Source: Candidatus Zixiibacteriota bacterium (GTDB lineage: Bacteria; Zixibacteria; MSB-5A5; SM23-73-2). From it: a stretch of DNA of 64,000 nt. The translations under genes and the position numbers were made by a program. The notes beneath the pieces are model-generated. The model searched no databases. It had not been told where the DNA came from and saw only the letters and a program-made list of their open reading frames with translations. The DNA lies in NCBI GenBank assembly GCA_030615745.1, contig JAUWYR010000002.1, positions 15,522-79,521 on the forward strand, given 5' to 3'. Below are positions 6,779 through 51,487 of the stretch, piece by piece; position 1 is the stretch's first letter, and every line of letters begins with the position of its first letter.

Positions 6779-9211
6779 CTATTCTTCTTCAGCTTTCATA
6801 ACCCTGGCGATATCTACCACCTTATCCCCTTCATCTAAATTTATCAGCCTCACACCCTGAGTCGCTCTTCCAATCGCCTTAATCTGTTTAGCAGGTTGTC
6901 TGATTATCTTTCCCTTCTGAGTTATAATCAAAAGCTCATCCTCATCCTCAACCATCTTGATAGCAACAGCTTTTCCATTCCTTTTGGTTGTCCTTATGTT
7001 TATTATCCCCTTTCCCCCACGATTGGTTATTCTATAATCAGAGACATCGGTTCTTTTACCATAGCCGTTCTCAGTGATAACTAAGATTTTTGTATCTTTT
7101 TTAATGATCTCCATTCCAATAACAAAGTCCTTATCCGAAAGATTTATTCCTCTAACTCCATAAGCATTTCTTCCGGTGGGTCTGATTTTGATCTCAGGAA
7201 ATCTTATAGCAACCCCACCTGTTGTGGCTAAAAGTATATCATAGGTCCCATCAGTTATCGTCGCTTCAATCAACTGATCATCTTCAGGAAGATTTATTGC
7301 GATGATCCCTCCCTTTCGAGGATTGGAAAAAGCATCCAGCTTTGTCTTTTTTATCACTCCTTTTTTAGTTGCCATCACAACAAAACGCTTCTCATCGAAT
7401 TTATCCACCGGAACAAAAGCAGTTATGTTCTCATCTTTACCTAAATCCAAAAGGTTAACTATAGGCTTCCCTTTTGTCAATCTCCCCCCCTGTGGAATCT
7501 CATAAACCTTTAGCCAGTGGCATCTGCCTTTGGTAGTAAAGAAAAGTATATAATCGTGGGTGAAGGCGATAAACAGATGTTCAACAAAATCTGTTTCCTT
7601 GGTCCCAATCCCTATAACTCCCTTTCCACCTCTGGACTGACGCTTGTAAGCATCGACACCCAGCCTTTTTATATATCCCTGATGAGTGATGGTTATCACC
7701 ATATCCTCCTCAGCTATCAAATCCTCTAAGGTGAACTCCTCCTCCTCCTCTTTTATCTCAGTCCTTCTCGGGTCCGCATATTTTTTCTTTAACTCTAAAA
7801 GCTCCTCTTTTATAAGTTGCATCCTTTTGACTTTGCTTTCGAGAATCCCTTTAAGTTGAGCAATCAATTTTATAAGCTCTAAGTATTCATCCTCAACTTT
7901 TTTCCGCTCAAGCCCGGTAAGCCTCGAAAGCCTCATATCCAATATCGCCTGCGCCTGGATCTCAGTTAATTCGTAATTTTTTATAAGTCCCTTTTTAGCA
8001 TCATCGGGGGTTTTTGATCTTCTAATCAATTTTATTATCGCATCTAAATACTTTAAAGCGATTTTAAATCCCTCTAAGATGTGTGCCCGCTTCTCCGCTC
8101 TTTTTAATTCGAATTTCATCCTTCTTGTGATAACCTCATGGCGATGTTCCAAAAAGTGCGAAAGAAGCTGTTTTAAGGTCAAAATCTTTGGCTGACCATC
8201 AACCAGAGCTAAAAGTATTACCCCGAATGTGCTCTGCATTTGAGTTTGCTTGAAGAGCTGATTCAAAATCACCTCAGCCGGAGCATCCCTTTTTAACTCA
8301 ATCACAATCCTCATCCCTTCTCTGTCGGACTCATCCCTTAAATCAGAGATCCCTTCGATGACCTTATTGTTCACCAAACTTGCAATCCTTTCCAGAAGGT
8401 TGGATTTGTTGATCTGAAAAGGTATCTCTGTTATTACAATCGATTCCTTTCCAGATTTTTGCTTCTCTGCTTTTGCCCTTGCTCTTAAGATGATCCTTCC
8501 TCTTCCTGTCCTGTAAGCTTCTGTTATCCCCGAAGTGCCGTAGATTATTCCTCCGGTTGGAAAGTCAGGACCAGGAATAAAGTTTAAAAGGTCCTCATCC
8601 TCTGTTTCAGGCTCCTCTATTATGTTTACCAATGCATCTACAACTTCACCCAGATTATGGGGGGGAATGTTTGTAGCCATTCCAACAGCGATGCCGGAGG
8701 AACCATTGCATACCAAATTAGGGAACCTGGAGGGCAAAACCACTGGTTCTTCTCTGGTCTCATCGTAGTTGGGTTGAAAATCCACTGTATCCTTTTCTAA
8801 GTCAGAAAGGATCTCCGTAGCAAAGAATGAAATCCGTGCCTCAGTGTATCTCATAGCTGCCGGAGCATCTCCATCGATGGACCCGAAGTTTCCCTGCCCA
8901 TCCACCAAAGGATATCTTAAGTTGAAATCCTGAGCCATCCTCACTAAAGTGGGATAGACCACCTGTTCGCCATGGGGATGATAATTACCCGAGGTATCTC
9001 CGCAGATTTTAGCACACTTCCTGGGAGGTCTCTCAGGGGATAAACCCAAATCGTTCATCGCCACTAAAATCCTTCGCATCGATGGTTTTAAACCATCCCT
9101 CACGTCTGGCAATGCACGGGAAGTTATAACAGACATAGAGTAGTCTATATAGGAGGATTTCATCTCCTCCTCAATATAGACCGGAACGACTTTCTCTTTG
9201 TTTCCTAACAT
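6779..9211 (-). CDS. gyrA: DNA gyrase subunit A
   Basis: [24 protein letters not shown] and GyrA-box-like QSRGGKG. Confidence 0.98.
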
Positions 9212-9621
9212 TATTGTTGACCTTCAAATACCTTTATCTTCTCCCCTAAGCTCTTCTGCAAAAAAGAGGCAATTTTTATTACATTGATACCATCTTTTCT
9301 TTTGATTTCTACGTCAAAGCGACCTGTTGCCTCTTTGCTTTTATTAAATGCCCAATAAAGATTCCTCATAGATATTTTGGAAAATTTCCTTGCCTCTGCA
9401 TAAAATTTCCAAAAAGAATTTAGTATTCCAATACTTGAACGAGGAAGTCTTTCTTTTTTTAGGATAAGCAAACCTCTTAAGGAAAGTTCCAACGAGTGAT
9501 ACCCTGTGTATACAGCTAAACGAGCCAAGCCCACTTTTAGGCTTTCTTTTGAACCGTACAAATACTCTTTTGAAAGTTTAAAAAAATCTAATGCTTTGTA
9601 TTTTTTCTCTAAAAGACTCAT
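9211..9621 (-). CDS. HEPN-domain protein, apparently degenerate and without an adjacent MNT partner
   Basis: AVYTGYHSLELSLRGLL helix pattern; no R-x4-H/Y motif; stop overlaps gyrA ATG. Confidence 0.6.
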   Translation of the reverse strand: MSLLEKKYKALDFFKLSKEYLYGSKESLKVGLARLAVYTGYHSLELSLRGLLILKKERLPRSSIGILNSFWKFYAEARKFSKISMRNLYWAFNKSKEATGRFDVEIKRKDGINVIKIASFLQKSLGEKIKVFEGQQ

Positions 9622-9703
9622 ACTTGAGATCTTAAACGTTGTGTTTACTCAACTTTTAATTTAAAAAATTGTTAAATTATTTGTCCTAATAAACATACGC
9701 ATT

Positions 9704-9769
9704 TATATAGGAAGATTTCATCTCCTCCTCAATGTAGACTAGAAAGATTTTCTCTTTGTTTTAATACAT
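9704..9769 (-). pseudogene. Degenerate duplicate of the first 22 codons of gyrA
   Basis: 56/66 nt identical to 9146-9211; reads [21 protein letters not shown]. Confidence 0.9.
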
Positions 9770-9839
9770 CTTTAAATATTAAAAAAAGGGGTTAGCTCTT
9801 TGTTTTGAGTTCTTCTGTAATCCTTTATGGAAAAGCTGA

Positions 9840-9890
9840 GCAAAAATAAATTTCTGCACTCCAAACCTATCGATCAAAATTTATTACATA
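9840..9890 (-). repeat. Degenerate duplicate of gyrB 3' end and downstream flank (partner 10425-10474)
   Basis: GCAAAAATAAATTT(C)TGCACTCCAAACCTAT shared; encodes YVINFDR* versus gyrB YVKNLDV*. Confidence 0.85.
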
Positions 9891-9902
9891 GTTAAAATAT
9901 CT

Positions 9903-10130
9903 TTAAAGTTTATTGAATTCCTCAATTGAGAGCTTAGCTTGATGAATCACAATGTTTCTCAAGGTTCCGATGGGGATATCTTTTCCATGAAGAGGCACCA
10001 CCGCAATTCTTCCAGTCTTGGGATTTTTAAGAGAAACATGACTTCCTCTTTGATGGGTCCTTCGAAATCCGGCCTTTTCCAATTTTTTTATCACTCTCCT
10101 TGCCGAAAGAGCTTTTAATCTCTCTGACAT
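9903..10130 (-). CDS. hicA: HicA family toxin
   Basis: GF..QRGSH, VVPLH and IPIGTLRNI motifs. Confidence 0.9.
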   Translation of the reverse strand: MSERLKALSARRVIKKLEKAGFRRTHQRGSHVSLKNPKTGRIAVVPLHGKDIPIGTLRNIVIHQAKLSIEEFNKL

Positions 10131-10393
10131 TAAGATCTCGACGAAGTTTTTTTCGTCACATATAATTTTATGTAAGTTCCTTCAGTCCGAAAAACAGGCT
10201 TAGGGATAGGCCTTTTCTCCTTTTCAAGTGTTTCTAAATAACATAAAGCTGCCTCTTTAACATTTGCTTCCGCTTCAGCAAATGTATCACCAAAAGATGA
10301 AACATTATTCAATTCAGGAATGGTGGCTATTACCCTGCCCGTTTTTTTGTCCACTTCGTATTCAATCCTGAAATTGTACTCCTTTTTAGTCAT
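10130..10393 (-). CDS. hicB: HicB family antitoxin
   Basis: IPELNNVSSFGDTFAEAEANVKEA motif; translationally coupled to hicA. Confidence 0.9.
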   Translation of the reverse strand: MTKKEYNFRIEYEVDKKTGRVIATIPELNNVSSFGDTFAEAEANVKEAALCYLETLEKEKRPIPKPVFRTEGTYIKLYVTKKTSSRS

Positions 10394-10450
10394 GCTCTCC
10401 TTCCATATAAGTTATTTAAAAAAGGCAAAAATAAATTTTGCACTCCAAAC

Positions 10451-12732
<2,282 letters not shown>

Positions 12733-12868
12733 ATATCTAATCTATTAAGATTATACGTAAATAGCAAGTAAATTTTCTTTAATTTTTTGTATAAAAAATA
12801 TCTGTCCTGCAGGGAAAAACAACCCCCTTCTGCCTAAAAATTAGAGCCTTAAATTAAAAATCCATATC

Positions 12869-12924
12869 TGCGTATGCCGAAGGTCAAGAGACATGCATCG
12901 GAGATCAAGAGATACGCATTCTAC
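12869..12924. repeat. 20-bp palindrome (REP-like; GTAG overlaps dnaN stop) interrupted by two 15-nt CAAGAG insertions
   Basis: Removing 12878-12892 and 12898-12912 gives the perfect palindrome TGCGTATGCATGCATACGCA. Confidence 0.85.
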
Positions 12925-14066
12925 TCCACCAGCCTTAAAGGCATCAAAAGACAGAGATATTCCTCTCCCTCTTTTTGCGGAACAGAATATATAATTCCTG
13001 CAGATACAGAAGTGGACAGCTCAAAAGTTACCTTCTCTCCTTCCATCTGCTTCAAAACATCCAGCACATAGTTGGCGTTGTATCCTATCTCCATATCTTC
13101 CCCTGTATACTCACAGGGGATAGTCTCTTTTGCCTCACCCCCAAGATCAAAATTAACCGAGGATAGTTCTAAACTCCCTCCACTTGCCCCGGCACCCCTT
13201 TTTAAACCAAACTTGACTTGATGAGTCAAAGTATTTGACAAAATTGCAACTCTTCTAACCGTGCTGGTTAAACTCTCTATATCTGCCACAAGTTTTTTGT
13301 CGTTATCCTTGGGTATAACCTGTTCAAAATTAGGATAAGGACCCTCAATCAAACGTGAAGATAAAATAACATCCTCGAGAGAGAAAATGATATTATTCTC
13401 ACCAAATATAATCCCCACATCATATTCTTCTTCACCGATGAATCTTGTCAGAAGGTTTAGAACTTTTGGTGGTATGATCACATCCTCATGCATACCTTTT
13501 AGCTTTTTATTAATCAAAGAGATCTTTGCCAACCTATGACCATCAGTTGCAACCATCTCCATCCTGTCTCCTTTGGTTCGCCACAATACTCCATTCAAAG
13601 CCGGGCGAGTCTCATCAGTTGATACTCCAAATATAGTCTTTCTGATTAAATTAGTTAGGTCAGCTCCGTTAATCTTTATCTGTTTGGCTAAGTTCACCTG
13701 GGGCAATTTTGGAAAATCATCTTTGGGAAGACCTGATATTTTGTAAACTCCCTTTCCGAACTTGATCTCAACACGCGTATCAGTCGAACTCACCTCGATC
13801 TCTGTCTCAGGGGCTTCCCTCACAATATCTGCGAACACTTTTGCCGGAATTGTTATATTCCCTAACTTCTTAACATTTACAGGTAGGGTCTTTATCACAA
13901 AAGTGTCCAGATCTGTAGCAGCTAACCTAAGTTTTCCAACACCTTTTGTATTATCAGTCTCAAGCAAAATATTTGACAATACTTGAAGCGTAGTCCTGGT
14001 TGGAACTACACTTAATACACTTTGGAGCGCTTGTAATAGTTCACTTTTTGCAACAGAGAATTTCAC
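12921..14066 (-). CDS. dnaN: DNA polymerase III beta sliding clamp
   Basis: ATDLD, ATDGHRL, SRLIEGPYP and LLMPLRL motifs. Confidence 0.97.
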   Translation of the reverse strand: MKFSVAKSELLQALQSVLSVVPTRTTLQVLSNILLETDNTKGVGKLRLAATDLDTFVIKTLPVNVKKLGNITIPAKVFADIVREAPETEIEVSSTDTRVEIKFGKGVYKISGLPKDDFPKLPQVNLAKQIKINGADLTNLIRKTIFGVSTDETRPALNGVLWRTKGDRMEMVATDGHRLAKISLINKKLKGMHEDVIIPPKVLNLLTRFIGEEEYDVGIIFGENNIIFSLEDVILSSRLIEGPYPNFEQVIPKDNDKKLVADIESLTSTVRRVAILSNTLTHQVKFGLKRGAGASGGSLELSSVNFDLGGEAKETIPCEYTGEDMEIGYNANYVLDVLKQMEGEKVTFELSTSVSAGIIYSVPQKEGEEYLCLLMPLRLVE

Positions 14067-14069
14067 TTT

Positions 14070-14300
14070 ATCCTCCTTATAATTTTAAATTTTTAACTTT
14101 AAATTTTAAATTAATAGTAATAGCTGTGTTAAAATGTTAACAAAGTAATTCAATTTCCTTTAACTTTTTTTCTCATTTGAGATTAACTTCATCACCTGAC
14201 AGTTTTTTTATGTTAATAAGATATTGAAATATATAACTTTTTTCAACAAGAATTAACTAATTCTATTTTTAAACAGACCTTCCACATTTTTTTAACCTAT
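14070..14300. promoter_or_regulatory. AT-rich dnaA-dnaN intergenic region with degenerate DnaA boxes; candidate oriC part
   Basis: TGTTAATAA, TTTTCAACA, CCTTCCACA; very AT-rich. Confidence 0.55.
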
Positions 14301-15644
14301 TTATCCATATAAGGAATTTATAATTTCATCAACTTTAAGTTTGAAATCTTGGTCCTTTTTAATATTTTCTGCAACAAGATTACATGAGTGAATTACAGTT
14401 GAATGATCCCTTCCACCGAATTTAAGACCGATAGACTTCAAGGAGAAATCAGTAAGATTTCTACAAAGATACATCGCCACCTGCCTGGCCCAGCAGATCT
14501 CCTGAGTCTTTCTTTTGGAACATAAAAGTTCTGGAGACAGCTTAAAATATTCACCGACCTTTTTCTGAATATCCTCAATCGATATTTTTTTACTCTCATT
14601 TCTTATAGTATCTTTCAAAACATCCTTTGCTAATTCCAAAGTAAGCTCTTTTTGGTGAAGAGAACAATAGGCTAAAAGGCGTATCAATGACCCCTCCAGT
14701 TCCCTTATATTGGAGGTTACATTGTCAGCTAAAAAACCAGCGACATCATCAGGTATAGTTATATTATCAGACTCAGTTTTCTTTTTAATTATAGCTATTC
14801 TTGTTTCCAGATCAGGTGGTTGGATGTCGGTCACCAGACCCCAGCCGAATCTTGAAAGAAGCCTCTCTTCTAATCCTTTGATCTCTTTGAGTGGTCGGTC
14901 TGAGGTTAAAACGATCTGCTTACTACTCTGGTATAGTGCATTAAATGTGTGGAAGAATTGAACCTGAGTGCTCTCCTTTCCGGTGAAGAACTGAATGTCG
15001 TCCAAAAGCAGGAGGTCCACACTTCGATAAAAATGGACAAAATCCTGAAGGGTTGATGCCCCAATTGATGATATGAAGTCGTTGGTGAACTTCTCGCTTG
15101 TGACATATAAAACCTTTGCATCTTTTTTAAAATCTTTCACAAAATGTCCAATAGCCTGAACCAGATGTGTCTTGCCCAAGCCAACACCTCCATAGATGTA
15201 AAGTGGGTTGAATTTGGTTTTTCCTGGGGCTTCAGCAACTGCCATAGCAGCCGCGTGTGCAAACTGATTGTTCTCCCCTACAACGAAGCTCTCAAAAGTG
15301 TATTTTGGATTTAAGATTGTGCTTTGCTCGGAAGATAGATTTAAATCCCTTTTTTTTGAATTAAAGGATATCTCTGTTTGATGACCTCCTAACTCATTTC
15401 TTATGCACAAAGATAGGTTCAATTTTTCATTAGTTATCTTTTGGACAGCTTCCTTTATCAAATGTGAATAATGTTCCTCAAGCCACTCAGCAACGAATTT
15501 GTTCGGGACTGCGACCTTCAAAGAACTGTCATTGCTTGGAAGCCCTTTAGTGGGCTTTAACCAGGTTAGAAAGCTTTGTCTCTTTATCTTGGTGCTCAAA
15601 TAATTAAGACATTCATCCCAGATTTTCACACTGTCTATAGGCAT
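14301..15644 (-). CDS. dnaA: Chromosomal replication initiator DnaA
   Basis: GGVGLGKTHL, DDIQF and FGGRDHSTV motifs. Confidence 0.98.
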   Translation of the reverse strand: MPIDSVKIWDECLNYLSTKIKRQSFLTWLKPTKGLPSNDSSLKVAVPNKFVAEWLEEHYSHLIKEAVQKITNEKLNLSLCIRNELGGHQTEISFNSKKRDLNLSSEQSTILNPKYTFESFVVGENNQFAHAAAMAVAEAPGKTKFNPLYIYGGVGLGKTHLVQAIGHFVKDFKKDAKVLYVTSEKFTNDFISSIGASTLQDFVHFYRSVDLLLLDDIQFFTGKESTQVQFFHTFNALYQSSKQIVLTSDRPLKEIKGLEERLLSRFGWGLVTDIQPPDLETRIAIIKKKTESDNITIPDDVAGFLADNVTSNIRELEGSLIRLLAYCSLHQKELTLELAKDVLKDTIRNESKKISIEDIQKKVGEYFKLSPELLCSKRKTQEICWARQVAMYLCRNLTDFSLKSIGLKFGGRDHSTVIHSCNLVAENIKKDQDFKLKVDEIINSLYG

Positions 15645-15679
15645 AGCGAACTTCTTTTAAAGTTAAACTTAAATATCGA

Positions 15680-16110
15680 CACCTTTTCCACAATTGTGGG
15701 GAAAAGATAACTCTTTTATTTACATATAATTAGGTGATTCTATTTAGAAAAATAAAAAGTTTTCCACAAAAGAGTTACAAATCAGGCAAATTTTATCTTT
15801 TGTGGCACAACCACTTAAAAAACCACCCTCGACTTTCCACATCTTATTAACAGACTTTAACTTACACTCATCTTTTCACAAAGGTAAATCCGAAAAAACT
15901 TTTGTCAAGAGATTTTATTAAATTACTTTAAAAAAATTTTAACCTTTTAAGAAAACAACTGTTAGAAAGCCCACGAAAAAATATTTAAATAAAAACATTT
16001 TCACTTTTAAAAAATTCAAAAAAAAGAAAAAACCCAATCCATCTTCTTAGAAATTAAAATGATATAGTTTTGGCTTTTCAAAACATTATTAATATAACTA
16101 ATAAAGCTTC
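15680..16110. promoter_or_regulatory. dnaA upstream region with DnaA-like boxes; candidate oriC part
   Basis: TTTTCCACA at 15684 and 15760, CTTTCCACA at 15833, TTATTAACA at 15844; gene-orientation switch nearby. Confidence 0.65.
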
Positions 16111-16114
16111 ATTT

Positions 16115-16272
16115 TCAAAACTCCATTAAAAGAGTTTTTTCGATTTTGCTGATTAGAGTATCTCCATTGTGCAGAGAGCACTTACATCGTCCCTCTCTGG
16201 TTCGAATTCCGAGCTCGTCGAGTATTAGTTGGATGCTTATCAGATTTTTTAGTTTTCTAAATCAATCTTCAT
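16115..16272 (-). pseudogene. Frameshifted, truncated CHC2 zinc-finger primase N-terminus
   Basis: MKIDLE/(shift)KLKNLISIQLILDELGIRTREGRCKCSLHNGD. Confidence 0.6.
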
Positions 16273-16426
16273 TCAAAATCTGTTTGATCTGCGAGATAAT
16301 CACAGGTTTCATTTTCTCGATCTTATCCCGCAAGTTTTTTTCTTCTTCCAGGTCATCGTAATTGGGAACAAAGGTCACTTTATAGCCATTTTCTTCTTTA
16401 GTGACGGGAATCTGCAGAATAGCCAT
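16262..16426 (-). CDS. Small hypothetical protein (54 aa, not in ORF track)
   Basis: GGAGG RBS; MAILQIPVTKEENGYKVTF...QILNED*; overlaps next start. Confidence 0.55.
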   Translation of the reverse strand: MAILQIPVTKEENGYKVTFVPNYDDLEEEKNLRDKIEKMKPVIISQIKQILNED

Positions 16427-16429
16427 CTT

Positions 16430-16693
16430 TCACCTCCCTTCTTTTGTTTTTTGCTTTAATTTTTGAACCACAAAAGTTGCTGATTTCAGGGATTGGAATG
16501 CCTCAAAAAGTCTTATTGTGGAGACAGTTTGTGATCCGTTGTAGAATCCCAGGATTACCTCTTGGGAGGGAGCAGGTTCAAAAATGAAGGTCTTTCGACC
16601 CGCTCCATTATCTTGGATATCCTTGAGAGTGGAATATCCTGAGGCGATTAAAAAAGAAGCGAAAAACAAGTCGGTGGTCTCGTAATGGTTCAT
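16430..16693 (-). CDS. DUF5659-like small protein
   Basis: YETTDLFFASFLIASG...RKTFIF pattern recalled for this family. Confidence 0.65.
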   Translation of the reverse strand: MNHYETTDLFFASFLIASGYSTLKDIQDNGAGRKTFIFEPAPSQEVILGFYNGSQTVSTIRLFEAFQSLKSATFVVQKLKQKTKEGR

Positions 16694-16855
16694 ATCATCT
16701 TTTGTTTTTCTTCATCACGTTCATCCTGCTTTCAAAAACAAAAAATCCCTGTAAAGATTTTATAATCCTTACAGGGAAAAATCTATAGCCCCTCTTGTGA
16801 AAAGTCAAAGACGCTACAAGATTCTTAGAGAATCCCCAGGAAAATCAAACTGCTT

Positions 16856-17920
16856 TTATATTTCCTCCTTTTCGACCTTGTCAAATGCCATGAAAGGATA
16901 TCTGCGACTGCCTTTCACCTTTGGCACCATTACCATGTTCTTAATGTCCTTTTCCATCCGCTTTATTGCCTTCTTTATGACATCCACAAAAGGAACCGGA
17001 GATTTCATCACCTTTCCTCTTTCGTTTCTGCTCTGGCCAGTGATATAAAAGCTTCTCTCATCTTCAAAGTCCTGTGCGTATTTTGGAGACAGAAAACCAG
17101 ATTTTACTTCTCTAATCAAGGCAAAATCATCTAACTCTTTCCCTTTCCTATCTTCTTTGCTGATCTCTTTCTTAATTCCTCTGATAACCAACAAATCGAT
17201 ATCTTCAGGATGCAATTCAGCCCAGATTTTGGCTATTTCTGATGGTCTGAGTTTGCACTCTTTAGCCAAATCGTACCAACACAAATCTCTATTAAAATTT
17301 GTTCTACCTTCCCTTTTGCCCCAGAACTCATTTTGCAATTCCTCAATTCTTTTCCATTTCGCTCGAATATCTTCGAGCGTTGTCCACTCGTTTATACGTA
17401 TCTCAAGCCATATTCGCCCCGTTTCGTCGTTCCAAGTATACCTAATTTCTGCAGGATCGCTCAGATAAATAGACAAAGAATCGATCTTTCCGTCCCACCT
17501 GTGACCGATATCCCAACGTCTGCAGAAGTCTTCCCATTTGAAAGTGTATTGTTGAAACACTATACCTTTGTTCCAAATCCTTTCATGCAAATTCCTAGGG
17601 TTGTAATACTGTTGACAGTCTAGATCTTCAGCGTCTTTAAAATATCTGTCCTTTGGCTTCCGGCCTCTGCATTTCCTGGTCTTGGGATAGTCTAATCTTA
17701 GCCATAGATTCTCTTCAGACTCTTCTTCGAGTTTCTCCCTATAGCGCAAATCATAGTGAAACTTCTTCAATTCAAAAAAAGTGCCTCCTCCCAATCTCTT
17801 GGCAATCCCCTTTAATTCCTCCAGAAATGTCTTATTTCTTGCTAACAACTCCGCCCGTTGAACTCTTTTATCAGAGATTTGGCGATGTTTTTCCAATATC
17901 TTCTTTACTTTCTCGTCCAC
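16856..17920 (-). CDS. Hypothetical protein of the mobile remnant
   Basis: 354-aa open ORF; no recognised motif. Confidence 0.7.
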   Translation of the reverse strand: MDEKVKKILEKHRQISDKRVQRAELLARNKTFLEELKGIAKRLGGGTFFELKKFHYDLRYREKLEEESEENLWLRLDYPKTRKCRGRKPKDRYFKDAEDLDCQQYYNPRNLHERIWNKGIVFQQYTFKWEDFCRRWDIGHRWDGKIDSLSIYLSDPAEIRYTWNDETGRIWLEIRINEWTTLEDIRAKWKRIEELQNEFWGKREGRTNFNRDLCWYDLAKECKLRPSEIAKIWAELHPEDIDLLVIRGIKKEISKEDRKGKELDDFALIREVKSGFLSPKYAQDFEDERSFYITGQSRNERGKVMKSPVPFVDVIKKAIKRMEKDIKNMVMVPKVKGSRRYPFMAFDKVEKEEI

Positions 17921-19084: not shown

Positions 19085-19099
19085 ATTTTTAAGATAAAA

Positions 19100-20779: not shown

Positions 20780-20789
20780 TTACAAGGAA

Positions 20790-36489: not shown

Positions 36490-36527
36490 AGAGAAGTATT
36501 GAATAGAAAACAACAAGTTTTGCAATT

Positions 36528-43550: not shown

Positions 43551-43551
43551 A

Positions 43552-44760
43552 ATGTCGCGGATGTTGAGTAAAAAAAGCTTTGATTTTAAAGATAGATATG
43601 CTTTAAGGTTAAATGTGCTTGAACCATATCTTTTCTGTAAGTTGGCTGAAGCGAAAAAGAGGTCAAAAAAAGAATTAATCGATTTAGGTGCAGGAGACCC
43701 TGACCTTTTCCCTCCAAAAAAGATAATTGAAACTATAAAAAAGGAGGCTTTAAAACCAGAAAATCATCGCCATCCTGTTTATGAGGGTATTTGGGAGCTG
43801 AAGGAAGCCATAGTTGAGTGGTTTTATCAAAGATTCAGGGTGAAACTTGATCCTAAAAAAGAGGTTTTGGTCTTAGCTGGTTCAAAAGAGGGTCTTGGTC
43901 TTATAAGCTGGGCTATTTTGAATCGAGGTGAGGAGGCTTTAGTTCCTGATCCAGGATATCCGATCTACAGAAGGTCTGTTCTACTTTGTGGTGGCAAGCC
44001 AGTTTTTTTCCCTCTCTTAGAAAAGAATGATTGGCTTTTAGATTTTGAAAAAATAAAGATTGGACCAAAGACCAAGCTTTTATTTCTAAATTATCCTCAT
44101 AATCCGACTGGAGCGGTTCTGGATTCAGATTTTTTTGAAAAAATATATTCTTTTGCTAAAAAAAACCAGATTATTGTGTGTAATGATATGGCATATTCGG
44201 AAATCACTTTCGATGGTTACATCTCCCCGAGCTTTTTGCAGATAAAAGGTGCAAAAAATCTCTGTCTTGAGTTTTATTCATTTTCCAAGACCTATTCTAT
44301 GAGCGGATGGAGGCTTGGATTTGTGGTGGGGAATAGAGATTTGATCGATGCGCTATTTAAGGTTAAGGTTACTTCTAACTCAGGAGTTTTTCACCTGATT
44401 CAGAAGGCGGGAATAACAGCTTTGAGACTTCCAAAAAAAGAGGTCGAAAAGATAAAAGAGATTTATCAGAAGAGGAGAGATATTTTAACTGATGGATTGA
44501 TGAGGCTTGGTTGGAAGGTGAAAAGACCGAAAGGGACGATCTACCTCTGGGCAAAGATTCCGAATTTTTCTTCTAAAAAAAGAGATTCAAAAAAGTTCTG
44601 TTTGAATCTGCTCAAAAAAAAAGGAATTTTAACCACACCGGGCGCAGGCTTTGGTGAAAACGGGGAGGGATGGGTTCGTTTTTCCCTGACCACTAAAGTT
44701 GAAAATATAAATCGGGCTTTGAAAAGAATGGAAAAATTTGATTTTCAGGAGTTAAATTGA
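43552..44760 (+). CDS. PLP-dependent class I/II aminotransferase (DapL/DapC-like)
   Basis: NYPHNPTG, DMAY and SFSKTYSMSGWRLG motifs. Confidence 0.9.
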   Translation: MSRMLSKKSFDFKDRYALRLNVLEPYLFCKLAEAKKRSKKELIDLGAGDPDLFPPKKIIETIKKEALKPENHRHPVYEGIWELKEAIVEWFYQRFRVKLDPKKEVLVLAGSKEGLGLISWAILNRGEEALVPDPGYPIYRRSVLLCGGKPVFFPLLEKNDWLLDFEKIKIGPKTKLLFLNYPHNPTGAVLDSDFFEKIYSFAKKNQIIVCNDMAYSEITFDGYISPSFLQIKGAKNLCLEFYSFSKTYSMSGWRLGFVVGNRDLIDALFKVKVTSNSGVFHLIQKAGITALRLPKKEVEKIKEIYQKRRDILTDGLMRLGWKVKRPKGTIYLWAKIPNFSSKKRDSKKFCLNLLKKKGILTTPGAGFGENGEGWVRFSLTTKVENINRALKRMEKFDFQELN

Positions 44761-45671
44761 GCAAAAAAGTTTTTGAGGAGATAAAAAGCTTAATCACAGA
44801 AAGTCCTAATCCAGAGACCGAAAATATCGATTCAAAATCGACCAAAAAGATTTTAGAGTTGATAAACAAAGAGGACCAGAAGATAGCAAAAGAGGTAAAA
44901 AAAACAATACCACAGATAGTAAAGGGTGTTGACCTTATTGTGTCATCACTTAAGGGCGGTGGGAGACTTTTTTATATAGGTGCCGGGACAAGTGGAAGGC
45001 TTGGAGTCCTGGATTCTGCTGAGTGTCCCCCCACTTTCGGAACAGACCCAAAAAAGATTTCGGGGATAATAGCTGGAGGATATAAAACCTTAGTCAGGTC
45101 AAAAGAGGGAGTGGAGGATGACTTCTCCTCTGGTGAGGAGGATTTGAAAAAGAGAAATCTAAATAAATGCGATGTGGTCGTTGGAATAGCTGCTTCCAGA
45201 AGAACACCTTATGTCTTAGGTGCTTTAAAATATGCTAAAAAAATTAAAGCTAAAACCATTTTTTTGTTCTGTAATCCCTCGTCTCAACTTGAAATCAAGC
45301 CCGATGTTGTTATCTCCCCTGTTTTGGGCCCGGAGGTTATCGCTGGCTCCACTCGAATGAAGGCAGGGACAGCACAGAAGCTTATTTTAAATATGCTCTC
45401 AACCTGTGCTATGATTAAGCTCGGGAAAGTCTATAAAAATTTAATGGTAGACCTCCAGGCAAAAAGCAAAAAGCTTGAAGAACGCTCCAAAAGGATAATA
45501 ATGATTTTAACTGGTTTGGATTATGAAAAAGCAGGAGTGTATCTGAAAAAGGCTGATGGAAAAGTGAAAAAAGCTTTGTTGATGATTCTGGCTAAAGTCG
45601 ATAAAAAGGAAGCGGAAAAGAGATTGAAAAAATCTATGGGCTTTGTGAGGGAAGCTTTGGAAGAAAAGTAA
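44757..45671 (+). CDS. murQ: N-acetylmuramic acid 6-phosphate etherase
   Basis: GAGTSGRLGVLD..ECPPTFG and GSTRMKAGTAQK motifs. Confidence 0.96.
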   Translation: MSKKVFEEIKSLITESPNPETENIDSKSTKKILELINKEDQKIAKEVKKTIPQIVKGVDLIVSSLKGGGRLFYIGAGTSGRLGVLDSAECPPTFGTDPKKISGIIAGGYKTLVRSKEGVEDDFSSGEEDLKKRNLNKCDVVVGIAASRRTPYVLGALKYAKKIKAKTIFLFCNPSSQLEIKPDVVISPVLGPEVIAGSTRMKAGTAQKLILNMLSTCAMIKLGKVYKNLMVDLQAKSKKLEERSKRIIMILTGLDYEKAGVYLKKADGKVKKALLMILAKVDKKEAEKRLKKSMGFVREALEEK

Positions 45672-45705
45672 AAAATCCCGATTTAAAAAGAAAAGGTATT
45701 TATGG

Positions 45706-45785
45706 TATTATCTCCCCATCTCCAACCATTTTTAACCTTAAAAGTATCTCCATCAATTACTTCGCTCACCGTAAATTCTGCCTTC
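45706..45785 (-). pseudogene. Truncated second thermonuclease gene at the island edge
   Basis: AEFTVSEVIDGDTFKVKNGWRWGD resembles the N-terminus of 1308-1592. Confidence 0.7.
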
Positions 45786-45791
45786 GCCCCC

Positions 45792-46085
45792 CTATTGTTT
45801 TATTTTTTTCTGCATTTTCTTATTTACAGATTCACGGCCTAAGTAGACATTGGCGACTGCTCTGCCATATTTATCACGACTAACAGTATCAATTCTTACT
45901 TCCTCTCCCTCAATCATCCTACTAAGAGCCTCTTTTGTTTTAGCAGAACCACGCTGTCCTTTCTCTGGGGCATCTACATTCGCAAGCCTTACAGGGTTCT
46001 TTCGGCTGGCTGTTTCAAATGTATCGCCATCGATAATCTTTGTAACTTTTTCCTTTCTTGCCATTATTTTACTCCTTTCTATCAA
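45792..46085 (-). CDS. Small thermonuclease (SNase-like) family protein
   Basis: IIDGDTF, VRLANVDAPE and DKYGR motifs. Confidence 0.88.
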   Translation of the reverse strand: MIERSKIMARKEKVTKIIDGDTFETASRKNPVRLANVDAPEKGQRGSAKTKEALSRMIEGEEVRIDTVSRDKYGRAVANVYLGRESVNKKMQKKIKQ

Positions 46086-48910
46086 ATAAATAATGTTCCT
46101 TGGGCTTGGGCGATGATTTGATCACAAAGTCCCTGGCATAAAGGAACGAGTGCCTCAAATCCTAATCCCTGGTTATTCTTAAATAACCCTTCCGATAATA
46201 ATAGATATTCCCACATCTGAGGTTGACTATAATCAGATGGAGAGAAAACTGTTGAAGCCTGCTCACACCACGCCATCGCTGCTCGCACTTTTACTGCCAC
46301 ATTCGGACTACCTATGTCTTTGTCGGCTTTTGTTTCTACCAAATACATTTTATCTTTTGTTTTTACAATAAAGTCTACTTCGTAATTTCTCAAAATACCT
46401 GTATGGTCTCGATATGTTATCTTCAATCTATGTCGCCTATCCAGTTTGGAATAGGAAAGAACTTCTGTTGAAGGATTAAGAATCTTAAGCATGAAATCTC
46501 GTTCAAAACCACCGCCTTTAATTTGGTAGCCAATCCGGGGATAGATACTTTTATCAGTCTCTACAGATTTACTTTCTCTAACCATGACTCTTGGGACTTC
46601 CGACAGTTTCCCCCATACACCTTTTACCTCATATTTGTATCCTTCGATTAATTTCACGATTGCTTGATTAATAGTTTGAACAATATGGTCATAGACAAGA
46701 ATGTAATTCAAAACCGAGTAGTTCTCCTGCTTAGTAAAGTCGACAGATTCACCAAAACAATAATCCGTAACATAATCATCTATAAGCTGGGCGATTTCTG
46801 CCTGCTTTGCAGTAAGAATTGATTCTTTACCTCTTGTCGCTACTGCTCTGGATGCTTGTCTCAGGAAATATGAATAATCAAAATACTCATTATCCAGTTT
46901 CCATGTCTTTGTTTTTTTACCGCTTTCCACATGTATTTCCTGAATTATCAATTTTGAAAGCCAATTTTTCAGTTGCTGAAAATCACCGCTATATTTAGGA
47001 AGGCTACTAATGTCTATTTGTGAAAGTTCCGGCATGCGTCCTTCATCGAAAACTTGAATCGGCCAAGCAATATCATATTCCTTAATTCTTTCTGTTACTG
47101 CATCGACTGGCATTATATCACCAGTAGAAGTTGTACCACTGGAATCACCACCACCTATGATGTATCCTTCTTGTTTCAGGCTCTCATAGAACTCACGGAA
47201 TCTTGGATGTTCAACAACAAAAAGAAAGTCTAAAGAGTTGGAAGGTATCTTATTTTTTCGGATTTCAAGGAAGGCTTCTTTCTTTGCTTCCTGCAATTCG
47301 GGGAAACCATATCCAGGGAACATAAGTCTCAAACCTCTCCCTACAATCTGCTCTAAAAGAAGATCTGCCTCAGTTGCCCTTAAAACCACAGTTACACAGA
47401 TATTGTTTTTGTCAAACCCTTCCCGCAGCATCAGCACAGAGACAACCACCCTGAGCGAATCATCATCAATATCAATTCTATCAAGCCTTTTCCTAGCGTT
47501 TTCCAGAGTGGTGCCGTGCCTCGCCTCGGTAAGGTCAGAGTGAATTACCATTACTTGGTCATCATCATAGTAGTTTCCATTCTCATCAGTTAGTGTGGCG
47601 AAATGGTCTTTGGTCAAATCTGCAACTCTTGTGTCTTCACATAGCACCATCATTACAGGTTTTTTCTCAAGTCCTTTTTGCTTAAACTCCGAAGCTAATT
47701 GTTCCAGTTTCAAACGACCGATTTCCAAGAGAAGTTTCTGACCAGCAGAAAGAGACTTAATTTCACCACGTCGATGTCCCCCTTCAGGCTCGTATCTCTC
47801 TGCCCGAAAGTCAAGATCATCCAATGACTCACCGCCAATAGACTGACGCTCTTCCAGAAAGAGTTGTTTAACTAACATATCCTGCATTGCTGTTCTCAAC
47901 TCGTAGTCATAGACAATATGAGGAAAGTATTCTCTCTTCTCAGCACTTCCATAAAATGGAGTTGCCGAGTAGTCTATTTGGATAAATGGTCCAAAGCCAT
48001 CTTCGTGACGTTCTTTTAATCTCTCGTAAAGTGCATTCATAAACTGGCGCCAGACCAATTCTTCTCCAGTAGCAGTTTTTTTTCCATGAACATGATGAGC
48101 CTCGTCATTCATTACAATCAGATCAGGATATTGTGAAAGAAAATCGAGGATAATTTCCCCTCGGGGCATCTCCTCCACATCCTCACCAGTATACTGAGCC
48201 CAGAGATTCTGGGCACCGGTCTTAAGGCGAAACTGCTGCCAGTTTGTAATATAGACAAAAGGACCATCCGGAGGAGTTGTGTTGGAATTAACATCTTGCG
48301 GTTCAAATATCTCCCAATGGAATCTATCTCTCCAACGTGCTCCTTCTGGCATAAATAAAGAAAGTTTATAATCAGAGGTCTCTGGATTTCGATTCCCGGT
48401 TTTAAGGTCTCTCTTACCTCTAAAAGAATCAAGTAGTCGATCCAAGACTTCACGTCCTGGGGTAACTACCAGAAAACGAAAAGAATAATTACCTTTTTCG
48501 TCATTTATCTTATTGAAATACTGCCAGATAAGTAAAGCCGCCAAGACCCAGGTTTTGCCTGAACCTGTTGCCATTTTTACAGCATATTTTGGAAACGATA
48601 TAGTTTCAACTTCCTGTTTTAAGGGAAGGTGTAGGTAAAGTGTTTCGGGTGCTACTCGTTCAAAAAGTCCCTGCAAATTTCCTGGATTTAATATCTCATA
48701 ACAATAGACTATTGTCTCAATTGCTTGCTTTTGACAGGGGTAAAAACATTCTCCACCCTCTGCATCCCGATTAAACCAGTAATTAAAAAGTTCAAGTGTA
48801 GTCTGGGTAATACCCGGCCAACCCTCGTCAACCCAGGCTTTAACCTCTCCTTCTAGGACTTGAGCTAAATACATCTGAGAAAAAGCTTCGTTATCTTTTT
48901 TCTTAACCAT
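46082..48910 (-). CDS. Type III-like restriction enzyme Res subunit (SF2 helicase + nuclease)
   Basis: MATGSGKT, NDEAHH, EQIVGRGLR and VDF..LVETK motifs. Confidence 0.88.
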   Translation of the reverse strand: MVKKKDNEAFSQMYLAQVLEGEVKAWVDEGWPGITQTTLELFNYWFNRDAEGGECFYPCQKQAIETIVYCYEILNPGNLQGLFERVAPETLYLHLPLKQEVETISFPKYAVKMATGSGKTWVLAALLIWQYFNKINDEKGNYSFRFLVVTPGREVLDRLLDSFRGKRDLKTGNRNPETSDYKLSLFMPEGARWRDRFHWEIFEPQDVNSNTTPPDGPFVYITNWQQFRLKTGAQNLWAQYTGEDVEEMPRGEIILDFLSQYPDLIVMNDEAHHVHGKKTATGEELVWRQFMNALYERLKERHEDGFGPFIQIDYSATPFYGSAEKREYFPHIVYDYELRTAMQDMLVKQLFLEERQSIGGESLDDLDFRAERYEPEGGHRRGEIKSLSAGQKLLLEIGRLKLEQLASEFKQKGLEKKPVMMVLCEDTRVADLTKDHFATLTDENGNYYDDDQVMVIHSDLTEARHGTTLENARKRLDRIDIDDDSLRVVVSVLMLREGFDKNNICVTVVLRATEADLLLEQIVGRGLRLMFPGYGFPELQEAKKEAFLEIRKNKIPSNSLDFLFVVEHPRFREFYESLKQEGYIIGGGDSSGTTSTGDIMPVDAVTERIKEYDIAWPIQVFDEGRMPELSQIDISSLPKYSGDFQQLKNWLSKLIIQEIHVESGKKTKTWKLDNEYFDYSYFLRQASRAVATRGKESILTAKQAEIAQLIDDYVTDYCFGESVDFTKQENYSVLNYILVYDHIVQTINQAIVKLIEGYKYEVKGVWGKLSEVPRVMVRESKSVETDKSIYPRIGYQIKGGGFERDFMLKILNPSTEVLSYSKLDRRHRLKITYRDHTGILRNYEVDFIVKTKDKMYLVETKADKDIGSPNVAVKVRAAMAWCEQASTVFSPSDYSQPQMWEYLLLSEGLFKNNQGLGFEALVPLCQGLCDQIIAQAQGTLFI

Positions 48911-48918
48911 AGTATCTC

Positions 48919-50913
48919 CTACACTTCAATTGTTGCTCCTGCATCGTTACCAAAGATATCTACTACACGCACAGCAATGGTTCTCTTTTTTTTCTTATCT
49001 AATGTTTCTGTTGCTGCAGTTGGCACTGTTTTAGCTTTTTTACCATTACCTCTAAATGCTTGCCACCCGCTTTTGAAAGTAAATCCATCATAATCCCAAT
49101 CAACTGCCCAGTAATCTATTAATACGGCAAAATTATCCTTGGCAAGTTTCATTAGTGCATTGTAAGTCTCTTGTTCTTTCTTTGATGTATGGCTAACGGG
49201 GATATCCATCAACACATATCGCTTTATGGCAAGCCTTATCTGAACCTTTCCGTCTTCTAAGTCTTTCATCTCTGGCTCATTCATCCGCAGATAAGGTCTT
49301 TCATAAAAACGCACCTTGTCAGCAAGTGCTTCAATATCTTCTTCAGTTTTGGCTTTCTTAAGGTAATCATATATGTCTGGAGGAATATCCCGGCTCTCAA
49401 TTTGAACTTTCAATTTATCTCTTAAGGCACTCTTACGGGACTCTAATGCTTGATGGTAATTATATTCATAATCCCAGCCAAGTATAACTAATCTTCTGTA
49501 ACCTCTGCCGTCTAATTTTTGTGCCTGAAGTGCAAGCTCTTCTGCTTTCTTTGCAGTAATGGGGCGGTCGGGATAACCAACATATATCAATTCCTCAATG
49601 TCATTTACCTTACGAACACCAAGACCGCTTGTTTTATCTCTCGGAGTTGCACCGTAAAGTTTCAGAATCAGATGTTGCATCTCCCAGATTCTACCGCCAG
49701 TAAGATAAATCATTTCTCGCTGATAATTGCCGATATTTTCAATTAGAAATGGCTTTGCCTGCTGTTCCACAAGACGAGCACGAGTTACCTGAATTCCAAC
49801 TTTACCAAGTTCACAACCGATCCAGCGACGATTAAGTTTTTCTGCAACAGCAAGGGTAGTACCTGAACCGGAGAAGAAGTCGGCAACAAGGTCGCTTTCG
49901 TTAGATGAGGCTTTGAGGATGCGTTCAAGAAGTGCAGAGGGCTTTTGGGTGTTGAATCCCGTATTCTCTGATGCACTGGCAGCCAAACCCAACGAGGCGA
50001 TGTCATCCCACACGTCAGCAAGTTTCTTGTGACGGATGACATTTCCCTGTTCATCGGTGTGAACGAAGTGCTTTATCCTTATTTTCCCGCTTGACGTTCT
50101 TAGAACTCTTCCTTCGGCTTCTAATCTTCTTACGCTTTCCGCGGAATAGTCGCCTTTTGGAGTTGTATAGAAATATCTACCTTGATCATCCCGACGGTAA
50201 TGAGTTTTCGCCAACGGTTCTTTTTTCTCAAAGTACATCTCTCCACCAAACACAGCGTCTGCATCCTTAGCGTATCTCAATATTATGTCGTGTTTCGTTG
50301 CAAACCGAACTGGGCTTGGAGACTGAGGACCTTCATACCGCCATACAACTTCGTTCAGAAAGTTAGCCTTGCCAAAGATTTCGTCTAAGACTACCTTCAC
50401 ATAGTGCCCAACGTGCCACGCAATGTGTAAGTATAGGCTCCCATCTTCCGCCAGCAATCGTTTCATAAGCTGCAACCTTGGATAAAGCATATCAAGATAA
50501 GAATCAGTGCCACCTGCCCAGGTATCTTTGTAGGCAAGGCGTTCAATCACAGAGGGTTCTTTAGTAAACTCATTCCCTTCTATTGTCATCTTGTGAGAAT
50601 AATCTGCTTTGCTGTCAAAAGGCGGGTCAATATAGATAAGATTTATTTTCCCTTCATACCCTTGTGCAAGAAGTGCCTGCATTGCCAGAAGATTATCGCC
50701 CCAAATAAGACGATTCATTTTTTGCTTATCAATGTCTTCTTCGCCAAATAAACCGTCTCGGAAAGATAGAGGAAGTTGTCCAGCTTGCTGGGGATTAGGA
50801 ATTACCACCTCTGCAGTTTGAAATTCTATATCTTTTGGGTTAGGAGCTCTTCTGGGTTTCGTATCCCACACTAACCTTGCAGAATCTTTTTTTCTATGTT
50901 GATTATTAGCCAT
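48919..50913 (-). CDS. Type III-like Mod adenine methyltransferase
   Basis: IYIDPPF, TQKP and DFFSGSGTT motifs. Confidence 0.9.
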   Translation of the reverse strand: MANNQHRKKDSARLVWDTKPRRAPNPKDIEFQTAEVVIPNPQQAGQLPLSFRDGLFGEEDIDKQKMNRLIWGDNLLAMQALLAQGYEGKINLIYIDPPFDSKADYSHKMTIEGNEFTKEPSVIERLAYKDTWAGGTDSYLDMLYPRLQLMKRLLAEDGSLYLHIAWHVGHYVKVVLDEIFGKANFLNEVVWRYEGPQSPSPVRFATKHDIILRYAKDADAVFGGEMYFEKKEPLAKTHYRRDDQGRYFYTTPKGDYSAESVRRLEAEGRVLRTSSGKIRIKHFVHTDEQGNVIRHKKLADVWDDIASLGLAASASENTGFNTQKPSALLERILKASSNESDLVADFFSGSGTTLAVAEKLNRRWIGCELGKVGIQVTRARLVEQQAKPFLIENIGNYQREMIYLTGGRIWEMQHLILKLYGATPRDKTSGLGVRKVNDIEELIYVGYPDRPITAKKAEELALQAQKLDGRGYRRLVILGWDYEYNYHQALESRKSALRDKLKVQIESRDIPPDIYDYLKKAKTEEDIEALADKVRFYERPYLRMNEPEMKDLEDGKVQIRLAIKRYVLMDIPVSHTSKKEQETYNALMKLAKDNFAVLIDYWAVDWDYDGFTFKSGWQAFRGNGKKAKTVPTAATETLDKKKKRTIAVRVVDIFGNDAGATIEV

Positions 50914-50938
50914 AGTAATCTCCCTACTTTTTAGTCCT

Positions 50939-51064
50939 TTAGATATTCTTAATATTTTTCAAGCCAATTTTATCAGCCATTTCCAACTGAGCAAATTGTC
51001 CTTGAGTAAGGTCAAGCTTTTTCCTGAGTTCTTTAATCAAATTTGATACATCTTTATTTTTCAT
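50939..51064 (-). pseudogene. XRE HTH regulator, apparently with an internal deletion (41 aa)
   Basis: LIKELRKKLDLTQGQFAQ joined directly to LEMADKIG; recognition helix missing. Confidence 0.55.
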
Positions 51065-51238
51065 GACTGTACTCGAGACAATATTCAACGTATAAGATTC
51101 TATGAAGTATTATATAGAATTTTAATGCAAAGTCAAAACTTTTTGTTTTGGTTGTCAATAGGGGCTAAAGGAGCAAGTGATATTGTCCGTGCTTCTAGAT
51201 GTAATACGTGAAAATTCCCGATTTAAAAAAAGATAATA

Positions 51239-51487
51239 ATGGGAAAACAAAAAGGCAGACCAATAAAATATGTTCCTTTGAGAACCCTTCCTTCACGGCT
51301 TTATGCTTTGATGTTGAAGGAAGCATTAGCAAAACATAAAATTCCATCGATAGTCAAAGGTGATGATGTGGGGATTATGTTAGGCAGTTATTCTACCACC
51401 TCCCCGGTTGAGGTTTCCATCTGGGTTCCTGAAAAGGACAAAAAAAGATGTGAAGAGATAGCTGATCAGATGTTCGACCATATATGA
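51239..51487 (+). CDS. DUF2007-like small protein
   Basis: ALMLKEALAKHKIPS..VSIWVPEKD pattern. Confidence 0.7.
   Translation: MGKQKGRPIKYVPLRTLPSRLYALMLKEALAKHKIPSIVKGDDVGIMLGSYSTTSPVEVSIWVPEKDKKRCEEIADQMFDHI

Follow-up and report, generated by a model that had tools for sequence, protein, structure and literature searches.

How can accessory genes settle in the most conserved neighbourhoods of a bacterial chromosome, beside a displaced second copy of a neighbouring gene's end, with no integrase or transposase among them? The question is raised by a 64-kb stretch of DNA (contig C61, positions 15522-79521; hereafter the window) from a Candidatus Zixiibacteriota bacterium. Its genome, G000, is a metagenome-assembled genome (MAG) of 2.28 Mb in 74 contigs, 98.6% complete, and the closest named GyrA relative is a Zixibacteria MAG at 86% amino-acid identity. 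The window contains the replication-origin region, with gyrA, gyrB, dciA, dnaN and dnaA on the minus strand, rnpA, yidC, mnmE, mnmG, gidB and parAB on the plus strand, and a sign change of the GC skew near 18 kb. Four cargo units are considered here: a weakly HEPN-like open reading frame (ORF) beside gyrA, a hicBA toxin-antitoxin (TA) pair beside gyrB, a radical SAM gene beside mnmE, and a type III restriction-modification (RM) system between murQ and a DUF2007 gene. We favour the reading that the duplicated gene ends at these sites are two parental alleles of one conserved gene end, juxtaposed by homologous recombination with DNA of a diverged relative, and that no dedicated element takes part.

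Duplicated gene ends and empty sites

Each repeat was judged by its alignment score against 2000 shuffles. A sequence-only reading of the window had described all four units as bounded by duplicated host sequence, and this stands for three of them, where none of the 2000 shuffles matched the score: the gyrA start (9146-9203 against 9704-9761, 58 nt, 90% identity), the mnmE start (best local alignment 20823-20913 against 22224-22314, ~75%) and the spacer running from the murQ stop to an ATGG (45668-45705 against 51208-51242, 30 of 38 columns equal). These repeats, of 58, ~91-124 and 35-38 nt, enclose blocks of 0.56, 1.4 and 5.5 kb. The fourth duplication, of the gyrB end (9840-9893 against 10425-10477), falls away. 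Its coding part (27 nt) aligns at the level of chance, with 1246 of 2000 shuffles reaching the score, and its strong part is a hairpin motif, GGAGTGCA with a 7-bp A/T stem; hicBA is flanked by this 31-nt dispersed motif.

The sites were compared with those of relatives (genomes with G numbers), by tblastn and/or at the DNA level, and with the loci L146, L147 and L148. All four cargos are missing from the same sites in relatives, so that the units are insertions relative to them, as had been proposed. Without cargo, yidC and mnmE are adjacent by tblastn in G003 (contig C374), G004, G007, G009, G013, G015 and G021, and at the DNA level in G006 and G011 as well. The murQ and DUF2007 genes are adjacent in nine relatives at the DNA level, four of which were re-checked by tblastn along with G007 and G017; the relatives' spacer itself cannot be aligned to that of the window. 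The gyrB-gyrA spacer measures ~77-110 nt in four relatives and ~250 to 680 nt in G001, G017 and G007, and no HicA or HEPN match was found at any of 16 loci.

The absence of mobility genes noted in the sequence-only reading is borne out. A Pfam scan of 51 window ORFs returned no integrase or transposase domain, none of the four units lies between terminal inverted repeats, and no recombinase genes are present at the cargo-bearing loci of relatives (L147, L148 and contig C254 of G003). Genome-wide, we counted two full-length Xer-sized tyrosine recombinases, one fragment, one weak relic, and one serine recombinase on contig C5.

The assembled structures were compared with Logan contigs of the runs X1 (the likely source run), X2 and X4 (from other studies) and X5, and with the metagenome contig L146. 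X1 contigs span 8500-10436 and 10986-20943 with zero differences; they do not bridge the link between the REP (repetitive extragenic palindromic) hairpin and the radical SAM gene (20943-20949). In L146, at 97% identity, the displaced mnmE start (the ghost), the REP hairpin, the radical SAM gene and mnmE all lie in one contig. X2 and X4 carry 9140-9950 and 9060-9950, that is the gyrA start, the HEPN-like ORF and the ghosts, at ~97.5% identity, together with the joint between the mnmE ghost and the REP hairpin. The mnmE ghost is present in X1, X2 and X4, with a 51-nt deletion within it in X2 and X4, and an X5 contig connects yidC, the radical SAM gene and mnmE. The unit structures are not misassemblies, because independent public assemblies carry the same junctions. 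Close strains differ exactly at the insertion sites, as X5 demonstrates.

The two mnmE alleles

At the mnmE site, yidC (19118-20779, plus strand, identified by Pfam) is followed by the ghost mnmE 5' end (20790-20913, plus strand), which starts with an ATG at 20790, runs for 41 in-frame codons without a stop and is contiguous with yidC as in cargo-free relatives. Next come the REP-like double hairpin (20914-20978), the 330-aa SPL-like radical SAM ORF (21028-22020, plus strand; Pfam SPL, with all NCBIfam matches under their cut-offs) and the intact mnmE (22191-23594, plus strand; Pfam, start chosen from relatives), which carries the working copy of the duplicated end in its first ~124 nt.

The two copies share 68% identity over 124 nt. 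In a quartet comparison, eight sites group the ghost with the relatives of family f2 and the working copy with G003, one site supports the second arrangement and none the third (8:1:0), and private changes are about equal in number (six in the ghost, five in the working copy). Because the ghost groups away from the working copy and shows no excess of private changes, it is a different allele and not a decayed self-copy. The question of foreign allele against decayed self-copy, which the sequence-only reading had raised for phylogeny, is thus answered at mnmE, and at mnmE only. The ghost is ~65-72% identical to f2 over its full length. By sliding-window comparison and informative sites in yidC, the window genome is equidistant (~69%) from the G003 group and from f2, so that an f2-like ghost and a native ghost are not separable.

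The working copy, in turn, is a mosaic, G003-group-like and foreign up to about nt 71-93 and native-like beyond. We considered only sites at which the two copies differ and both G003 alleles agree (25 sites). In nt 1-66, G003 agrees with the working copy at 17 of them and with the ghost at 3; in nt 98-121 the corresponding counts are 1 and 4 (Fisher p = 0.012). The change of type lies between nt 71 and 93, in the 31-nt block where conservation is highest (27 of 31 positions equal in the two copies). The two copies can be read as reciprocal chimeras of donor and resident, at the mnmE locus only and from small numbers. By change-point analysis against G003, the working mnmE breaks at nt 92-108 (log-likelihood gain 3.7-7.0), a result that is suggestive but confounded by the conservation profile of the protein.

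Cargo and mnmE arm look co-transferred, because both are closer to the G003/L148 group than are yidC and the rest of mnmE: the radical SAM gene has 81.5% nucleotide identity to G003 and the working mnmE arm 83% to L148, against 69% to every group for yidC and 62-63% for mnmE beyond the arm. G003 itself holds two mnmE starts, one linked to yidC and one to the cargo. They differ by 16%, almost all of it synonymous, only to about nt 118, and are nearly identical after it; this boundary lies within 3-6 nt of the end of the window ghost.

The cargo at this site has been cut. Of a TcmP-radical SAM fusion, the radical SAM ORF represents only the 3' half; the fusion in L148 is a 700-aa ORF (TcmP at 127.6 bits plus the SPL-like domain) and in G003 has at least 495 aa. 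L148 holds the whole fusion, and L147 a short form of the cargo, between yidC and mnmE, in both cases with no ghost. The last ~10 codons of the window yidC differ in type from the G003/L147/L148 group. The X5 strain is ~3% diverged from the window in yidC, and its contig leaves the window sequence at 20751; from there to codon 25 of the radical SAM gene, 1391 letters of different sequence follow, where L148 has ~1300 nt between the same points.

The mnmE data exclude a replicative target duplication at this site, and they equally exclude a one-step homology-facilitated illegitimate recombination (HFIR) with a donor arm extending through nt 124. What is needed is a homologous crossover within the conserved gene end, together with one non-homologous joint at the border of ghost and cargo.

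The hairpin at that border is the one place where the REP part of the sequence-only reading, which had REP-like sequence at or in several junctions, was confirmed: a true REP element is found at one of eight junctions (20914-20978), and it is multi-copy. Short matches in 9640-9710 and in the CCCGATTT stretch were no more frequent than by chance, and both are single-copy. Of the two common mechanisms proposed there, Campbell-type integration fits the mnmE alleles and REP-associated capture does not fit the junctions. The REP-like family itself, with its palindromic core GGATGTTATCATCC (20924-20937 and 20954-20967 in the window hairpin), occurs in many copies in G000 and its relatives. Three genes similar to REP-associated tyrosine transposases (RAYT-like, Y1 family) are present in the genome, one of them between grpE and dnaK; members of the hairpin family and RAYT-like genes were located at window 20914-20978 and on contigs C17 (32268-32531), C25 (17668-17913) and C65 (20014-20343).

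The gyrB-gyrA site

The gyrB-gyrA site holds two cargos in series, all on the minus strand. The gyrA gene (6779-9211) is intact, with Pfam DNA_topoisoIV and gyrase C-terminal repeats, and its first 66 nt (9146-9211) form the working copy of the duplicated end. A 136-aa ORF follows (9211-9621), whose stop overlaps the gyrA ATG (TAATG). The name HEPN that it had been given is weak, since the Pfam HEPN match reaches 19.7 bits, under the 22-bit cut-off, and there is no PDB match. No homologue of the protein was found in 33 other genomes of the order, nor any relative among genome contigs by peptide patterns. Beyond it lie the ghost gyrA start (9704-9769), whose ATG equivalent occupies 9767-9769 and whose third codon is a stop, with a Pro to Leu change as well, and a relic of the ancestral gyrB-gyrA spacer (9770-9893), which includes the second copy of the hairpin motif (9840-9870) and the 27-nt stretch that weakly resembles the gyrB end.

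The hicBA cargo (9912-10393) consists of hicA (9912-10130; HicA_toxin at 67 bits) and hicB (10130-10393; HicB_lk_antitox at 26.2 bits, slightly below cut-off). The first hairpin motif copy (10425-10454) stands immediately after the stop of gyrB (10451-12394). In the X5 strain, hicBA is present with a 279-nt deletion, and upstream of the gyrA ATG there is different DNA, apparently another ORF with the same TAATG overlap. A hicB of 75-81% amino-acid identity to that of the window, truncated in G024, is found upstream of gyrA in G005 (C8, L134) and G024 (C73, L135), which belong to another family and have gyrB on a different contig.

By blastn-short, the hairpin motif has 19 matches of at least 17 nt in the genome, two of them at this locus and others between housekeeping genes such as cobO, gcpE, mreB and purA. 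It often stands right behind stop codons, sometimes in pairs 0.8-1 kb apart. Copies were recorded on contigs C12, C23, C40, C50, C60, C66, C69 and C73, with matches in G001, G013 and G026 also. By eye, the motif has no attC core of the kind expected of an integron site, and its spacing does not fit the Bacteroidota-type promoter consensus; both identities were considered and set aside.

The type III RM site

Downstream of murQ (44757-45671), the left spacer copy (45668-45705, plus strand) runs through an orphan ATGG. It is followed on the minus strand by a 5' fragment of an SNase-like gene (45706-45790, seen by translation), a 97-aa SNase-like ORF (45792-46085, Pfam SNase) and the RM cargo (46082-51070), comprising Res (46082-48910), Mod (48919-50913) and a 42-aa HTH-like ORF (50945-51070). 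PADLOC calls REase_III and MTase_III and Pfam finds ResIII and N6_N4_Mtase; the HTH_3 match is weak (E 0.0058). The right spacer copy (51208-51242, plus strand) leads into the intact DUF2007 gene (51239-51487, plus strand). The SNase-like fragment at the left junction and the halved radical SAM fusion are two cases of edge genes cut mid-ORF, a feature already noticed from the sequence. In G025, the RM homologue has no flanking repeats of at least 25 nt within 14.7 kb. A fragment with 76% DNA identity to the window Res lies on contig C5 (7780-10178, L125), beside a 503-aa serine recombinase and near the end of this 10.7-kb contig.

Recurrence across the genome

When the genome was aligned to itself by BLAST, local repeats of 30-500 nt at distances of 100-10,000 nt numbered 277 direct and 31 inverted; restriction to low-copy repeats left 60 direct against 2 inverted, and about a dozen enclose accessory genes. 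The insertions are recurrent, as had been suspected. Among 24 aligned repeat pairs, 14 enclose one to four ORFs and are neither REP nor tRNA repeats, eight are hairpins of REP type or of the dispersed motif, and two lie at tRNA 3' ends. Gene-end repeats include the mutL start around a KAP NTPase gene, the 3' end of a DUF362 gene (102 nt, 98%) around a dockerin protein, the dinB 3' end around an M14 peptidase, the rubrerythrin start (139 nt, 96%), and the 3' end of an FtsX-family gene (228 nt) around a truncated tyrosine integrase and ORFs of no assigned function on contig C54 (17814-20818, L114), a structure that looks like a decayed classical integrative element. Contig C17 repeats the gyrB-gyrA architecture, with two cargos, a repeat pair for each and the inner copies abutting. 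Cargo is not of one kind: dockerin proteins and oxidative-stress genes are found elsewhere in the genome, and the radical SAM gene is the remnant of the TcmP pair and not a named defence gene. The expectation that defence and TA genes are the rule was not upheld.

The KAP NTPase insert (contig C56, 26289-28320, L117) lies between a 23S-rRNA-IVP gene and mutL. It is common to G001, of the same genus, and missing in G003, G012, G014, G016 and G018; a single G003 copy aligns to both repeats. The two copies of its 80-nt repeat are 92% alike, and the orthologous G001 copy is ~80% identical. Because the copies are more alike than either is to its orthologue, exchange between them, possibly by gene conversion, is suggested. 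A dispersed repeat of ~100 nt lies between this cargo and the second copy.

Differences between copies, pooled over six repeats, number 11, 8 and 23 at codon positions 1, 2 and 3 (42 in total) and are non-uniform. As a means of telling the models apart the test was dropped, since the counts fit a neutral ghost paired with a constrained working copy equally well.

Other variable blocks in the window

Between dnaA and rnpA, 16244-18179 carries two ORFs, one with DUF5659 and one of 354 aa that belongs to no family. Contigs of X2, X4 and X5 cover the flanks of this block but almost none of its interior; it shows no flanking repeat and looks like a strain-variable insert beside the origin. At 34241-37181, four ORFs including an N6/N4 DNA methylase split moxR from the DUF58 gene of a usually single operon, again with no flanking repeat; this is probably another inserted block. 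A PD-(D/E)XK_3 ORF after a yjeF-type gene stands between 63-nt repeats of 86% identity, at window 63780-63842 and at C61 79780-79842, just past the window end, which are made of a short dispersed repeat unit and not of a gene end. The mnmG-gidB interval contains a 32-nt direct repeat (91%) at 28295-28326 and 28411-28442, with a spacing of 116 nt.

How the duplications may have arisen

Among mechanisms, first place goes tentatively to Campbell-type integration, in which a DNA fragment of a relative, closed to a circle, enters by a single crossover; we hold this to be a plausible account that falls short of being probable. The fragment would have held the cargo and a short stretch (35-125 nt) of the adjacent core-gene end, and would have been closed to a circle by a non-homologous joint. 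One RecA-type crossover within the short arm would then bring the circle into the chromosome, so that core gene A is followed by the first repeat copy, the closure joint, the cargo, and the second repeat copy with the rest of core gene B. Core gene B would stay intact because the repeat spans its start or stop. Such integration predicts reciprocal chimeras and foreign tracts that never pass the end of the arm, and it accounts for the two-cargo architecture. In this scenario we infer the circular intermediate, how the DNA entered, and a single process behind all sites.

A precedent exists in E. coli conjugation experiments. There, 56 of 60 recombinants carried duplications of the homologous segment (14 were sequenced, 109-950 bp), ascribed to a single crossover of circular molecules (PMC3240628). 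As at our sites, the insert is bracketed by a duplication of the homologous segment and no site-specific recombinase is needed. Unlike our sites, that system used a laboratory plasmid and identical homology, whereas here the arms are 35-125 nt long and diverged, the circle is hypothetical and the partners would be natural relatives.

Several observations weigh against a Campbell-type origin. For RecA crossover, arms of 35-66 nt with 75-90% identity come close to the usual lower limit or fall short of it. The reciprocal pattern comprises 25 informative sites at one locus, and the ghost in nt 98-121 agrees with the all-group consensus and not with the donor group specifically, so that a two-step history would fit equally well. 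Neither copy is assignable as foreign in the gyrA and RM repeats. L147 and L148 hold the cargo at the yidC-mnmE site with no ghost, so that cargo can occupy this site without duplication, and three other inserted or strain-variable blocks of the window have no flanking repeat, so that duplication is not obligatory. Neither a circle nor a precise-excision joint was found among the Logan contigs, which cannot show rare variants and so are uninformative about excision. Finally, the C54 islet joins a 228-nt gene-end repeat to a truncated integrase, so that site-specific integration makes at least some such structures in this genome.

The Campbell-type account could be carried one step further. The units may be integrase-free mobile modules, with the short copy of a core-gene end as an address label, that host RecA both integrates and excises; we regard this extension as unlikely. 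If it were true, recombination between the repeats would free a circle of cargo and one arm, able to enter any relative in which that gene end is present. Integration would bring TA, RM and other cargo to the side of such essential genes as gyrA, mnmE and mutL, and the presence of about a dozen sites in one small genome would be explained.

The closest rival is a two-step history involving HFIR, which we consider possible and rather doubtful. Here the cargo would have entered cleanly, by a double homologous crossover in both flanking core genes, and would then have been partly overwritten by DNA of a cargo-free relative: a fragment with the end of core gene A, the spacer and the start of core gene B recombines in core gene A, and its other end joins illegitimately inside the cargo. 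The ghost would be the fragment's start of core gene B, the scar of an incomplete curing. This history accommodates the ghost-free cargo of L147 and L148, the X5 insert whose length is near that of the corresponding stretch in L148, which holds the full fusion, and the tail of the window yidC, which switches type exactly at the X5 departure point. It is in keeping, too, with a ghost of even similarity to f2 throughout, with cargo that is truncated towards the ghost in both the mnmE and the RM unit, and with a REP hairpin at the joint. As in HFIR products, a single homologous crossover in a conserved gene is paired with a non-homologous joint, foreign genes come to lie beside the anchor, and cargo can be cut mid-gene. 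HFIR implies 3-10 bp of microhomology at the non-homologous joint and a homologous tract across from it; such a tract ends in mnmE and possibly another in yidC at 20751. Evidence for HFIR comes from three naturally competent species and from E. coli (PMC3240628); ComEC and DprA are present in our genome but also in 10-11 of 14 control genomes. However, HFIR products as described there usually carry a net deletion of similar size and not a duplication of the anchor. Moreover, the gyrB-gyrA ghost block stands between two cargos, where two non-homologous joints, or anchoring in the 31-nt motif, would be needed, and the two-step history gives no reason for foreign mnmE tracts (to about nt 80 here and about nt 118 in G003) to end within the length of the ghost.

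Site-specific integration is improbable as the general explanation. A displaced gene end paired with one supplied by the incoming element is the pattern left by integrative elements, for example those that target tRNA genes. The units would be remnants or satellites of elements that bring a replacement gene end at the attachment site, with the integrase lost or acting in trans. The pattern here, in which the target likewise stays intact, is as expected of tyrosine-integrase elements at gene or tRNA ends, and C54 is a local example; the two repeats at tRNA 3' ends, 7-9 nt of identity at the cargo-side end of the mnmE and gyrA ghosts, and the second type III Res fragment beside a serine recombinase on C5 also agree with it. 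Against this stand the lack of a recombinase in the four units and at the three cargo-bearing loci of relatives, and two full-length tyrosine recombinases for a dozen different targets. The mnmE crossover (nt 71-93) lies within the repeat and not at its end, and units of 0.56 kb are too small for an integrase unless internal deletions spared both ends.

Less probable still is a replicative long target duplication, in which breaks staggered far apart, made perhaps by a cargo nuclease, are filled in, so that the copies start out identical and the spare one decays. It is the reading offered for RM systems, with RM-made DNA breakage as a common property (PMC2853133). Several repeats elsewhere in the genome are 92-98% identical, and the stop and the Pro to Leu change in the gyrA ghost are consistent with decay. 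However, the grouping of the mnmE ghost and its lack of excess unique changes speak against it, three of the four cargos encode no restriction enzyme, and the codon-position counts do not separate the models.

An assembly artefact, with the alleles of two strains set in series, has a negligible chance despite the 74 contigs of the MAG and the link at 20943-20949 left unbridged by X1, since X1 contigs cross 8500-10436 and 10986-20943 without differences, X2, X4 and L146 carry the same junctions, an X5 contig connects yidC with the radical SAM gene and mnmE, and repeats of 68-90% identity are not k-mer-exact.

Relation to known insertions

The nearest described structure is the insertion with long target duplication of RM systems (Nobusato et al. 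2000, as cited in Furuta, Abe & Kobayashi 2010, PMC2853133). In that survey, such inserts are shorter than 20 kb, lack mobility genes, and lie between direct repeats of more than 30 bp that are single-copy at the empty site of a relative. The repeats often span a start or stop codon and leave the target gene intact; all RM types including type III, and mostly competent species, are involved; and the mechanism is left open, with a tentative tie to RM-made breaks. The window repeats likewise exceed 30 bp, their blocks are under 20 kb, and the empty sites at mnmE, gyrA and KAP/mutL are single-copy. R and M genes without mobility genes are found in the type III unit only; the other three have no RM genes. 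Unlike the repeats reported there, which are near-identical (for example 44/46 and 47/47), the window copies are 68-90% alike, and the mnmE copies do not derive from one target sequence, being two alleles with a crossover inside the repeat. Our sites extend the structure to non-RM cargo (three of four), to a new phylum and to about a dozen sites in one 2.3-Mb genome. A literature search returned no report of the pattern for non-RM cargo or in Zixibacteria, although the search was narrow and is no proof of absence. REP/RAYT-mediated mobilisation differs, with a REP hairpin at one junction only, though three RAYT-like genes are in the genome.

Taken together, these sites illustrate how, with no enzyme of a mobile element, accessory genes can move into and out of a genome's most conserved neighbourhoods, of which the replication origin is the example here. 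They indicate that a structure first attributed to RM systems arises generally when diverged relatives recombine. Each displaced gene end is a scar that can be dated and typed to an allele, and such scars could be used to trace the partners and routes of DNA exchange in uncultured lineages seen only in metagenomes.

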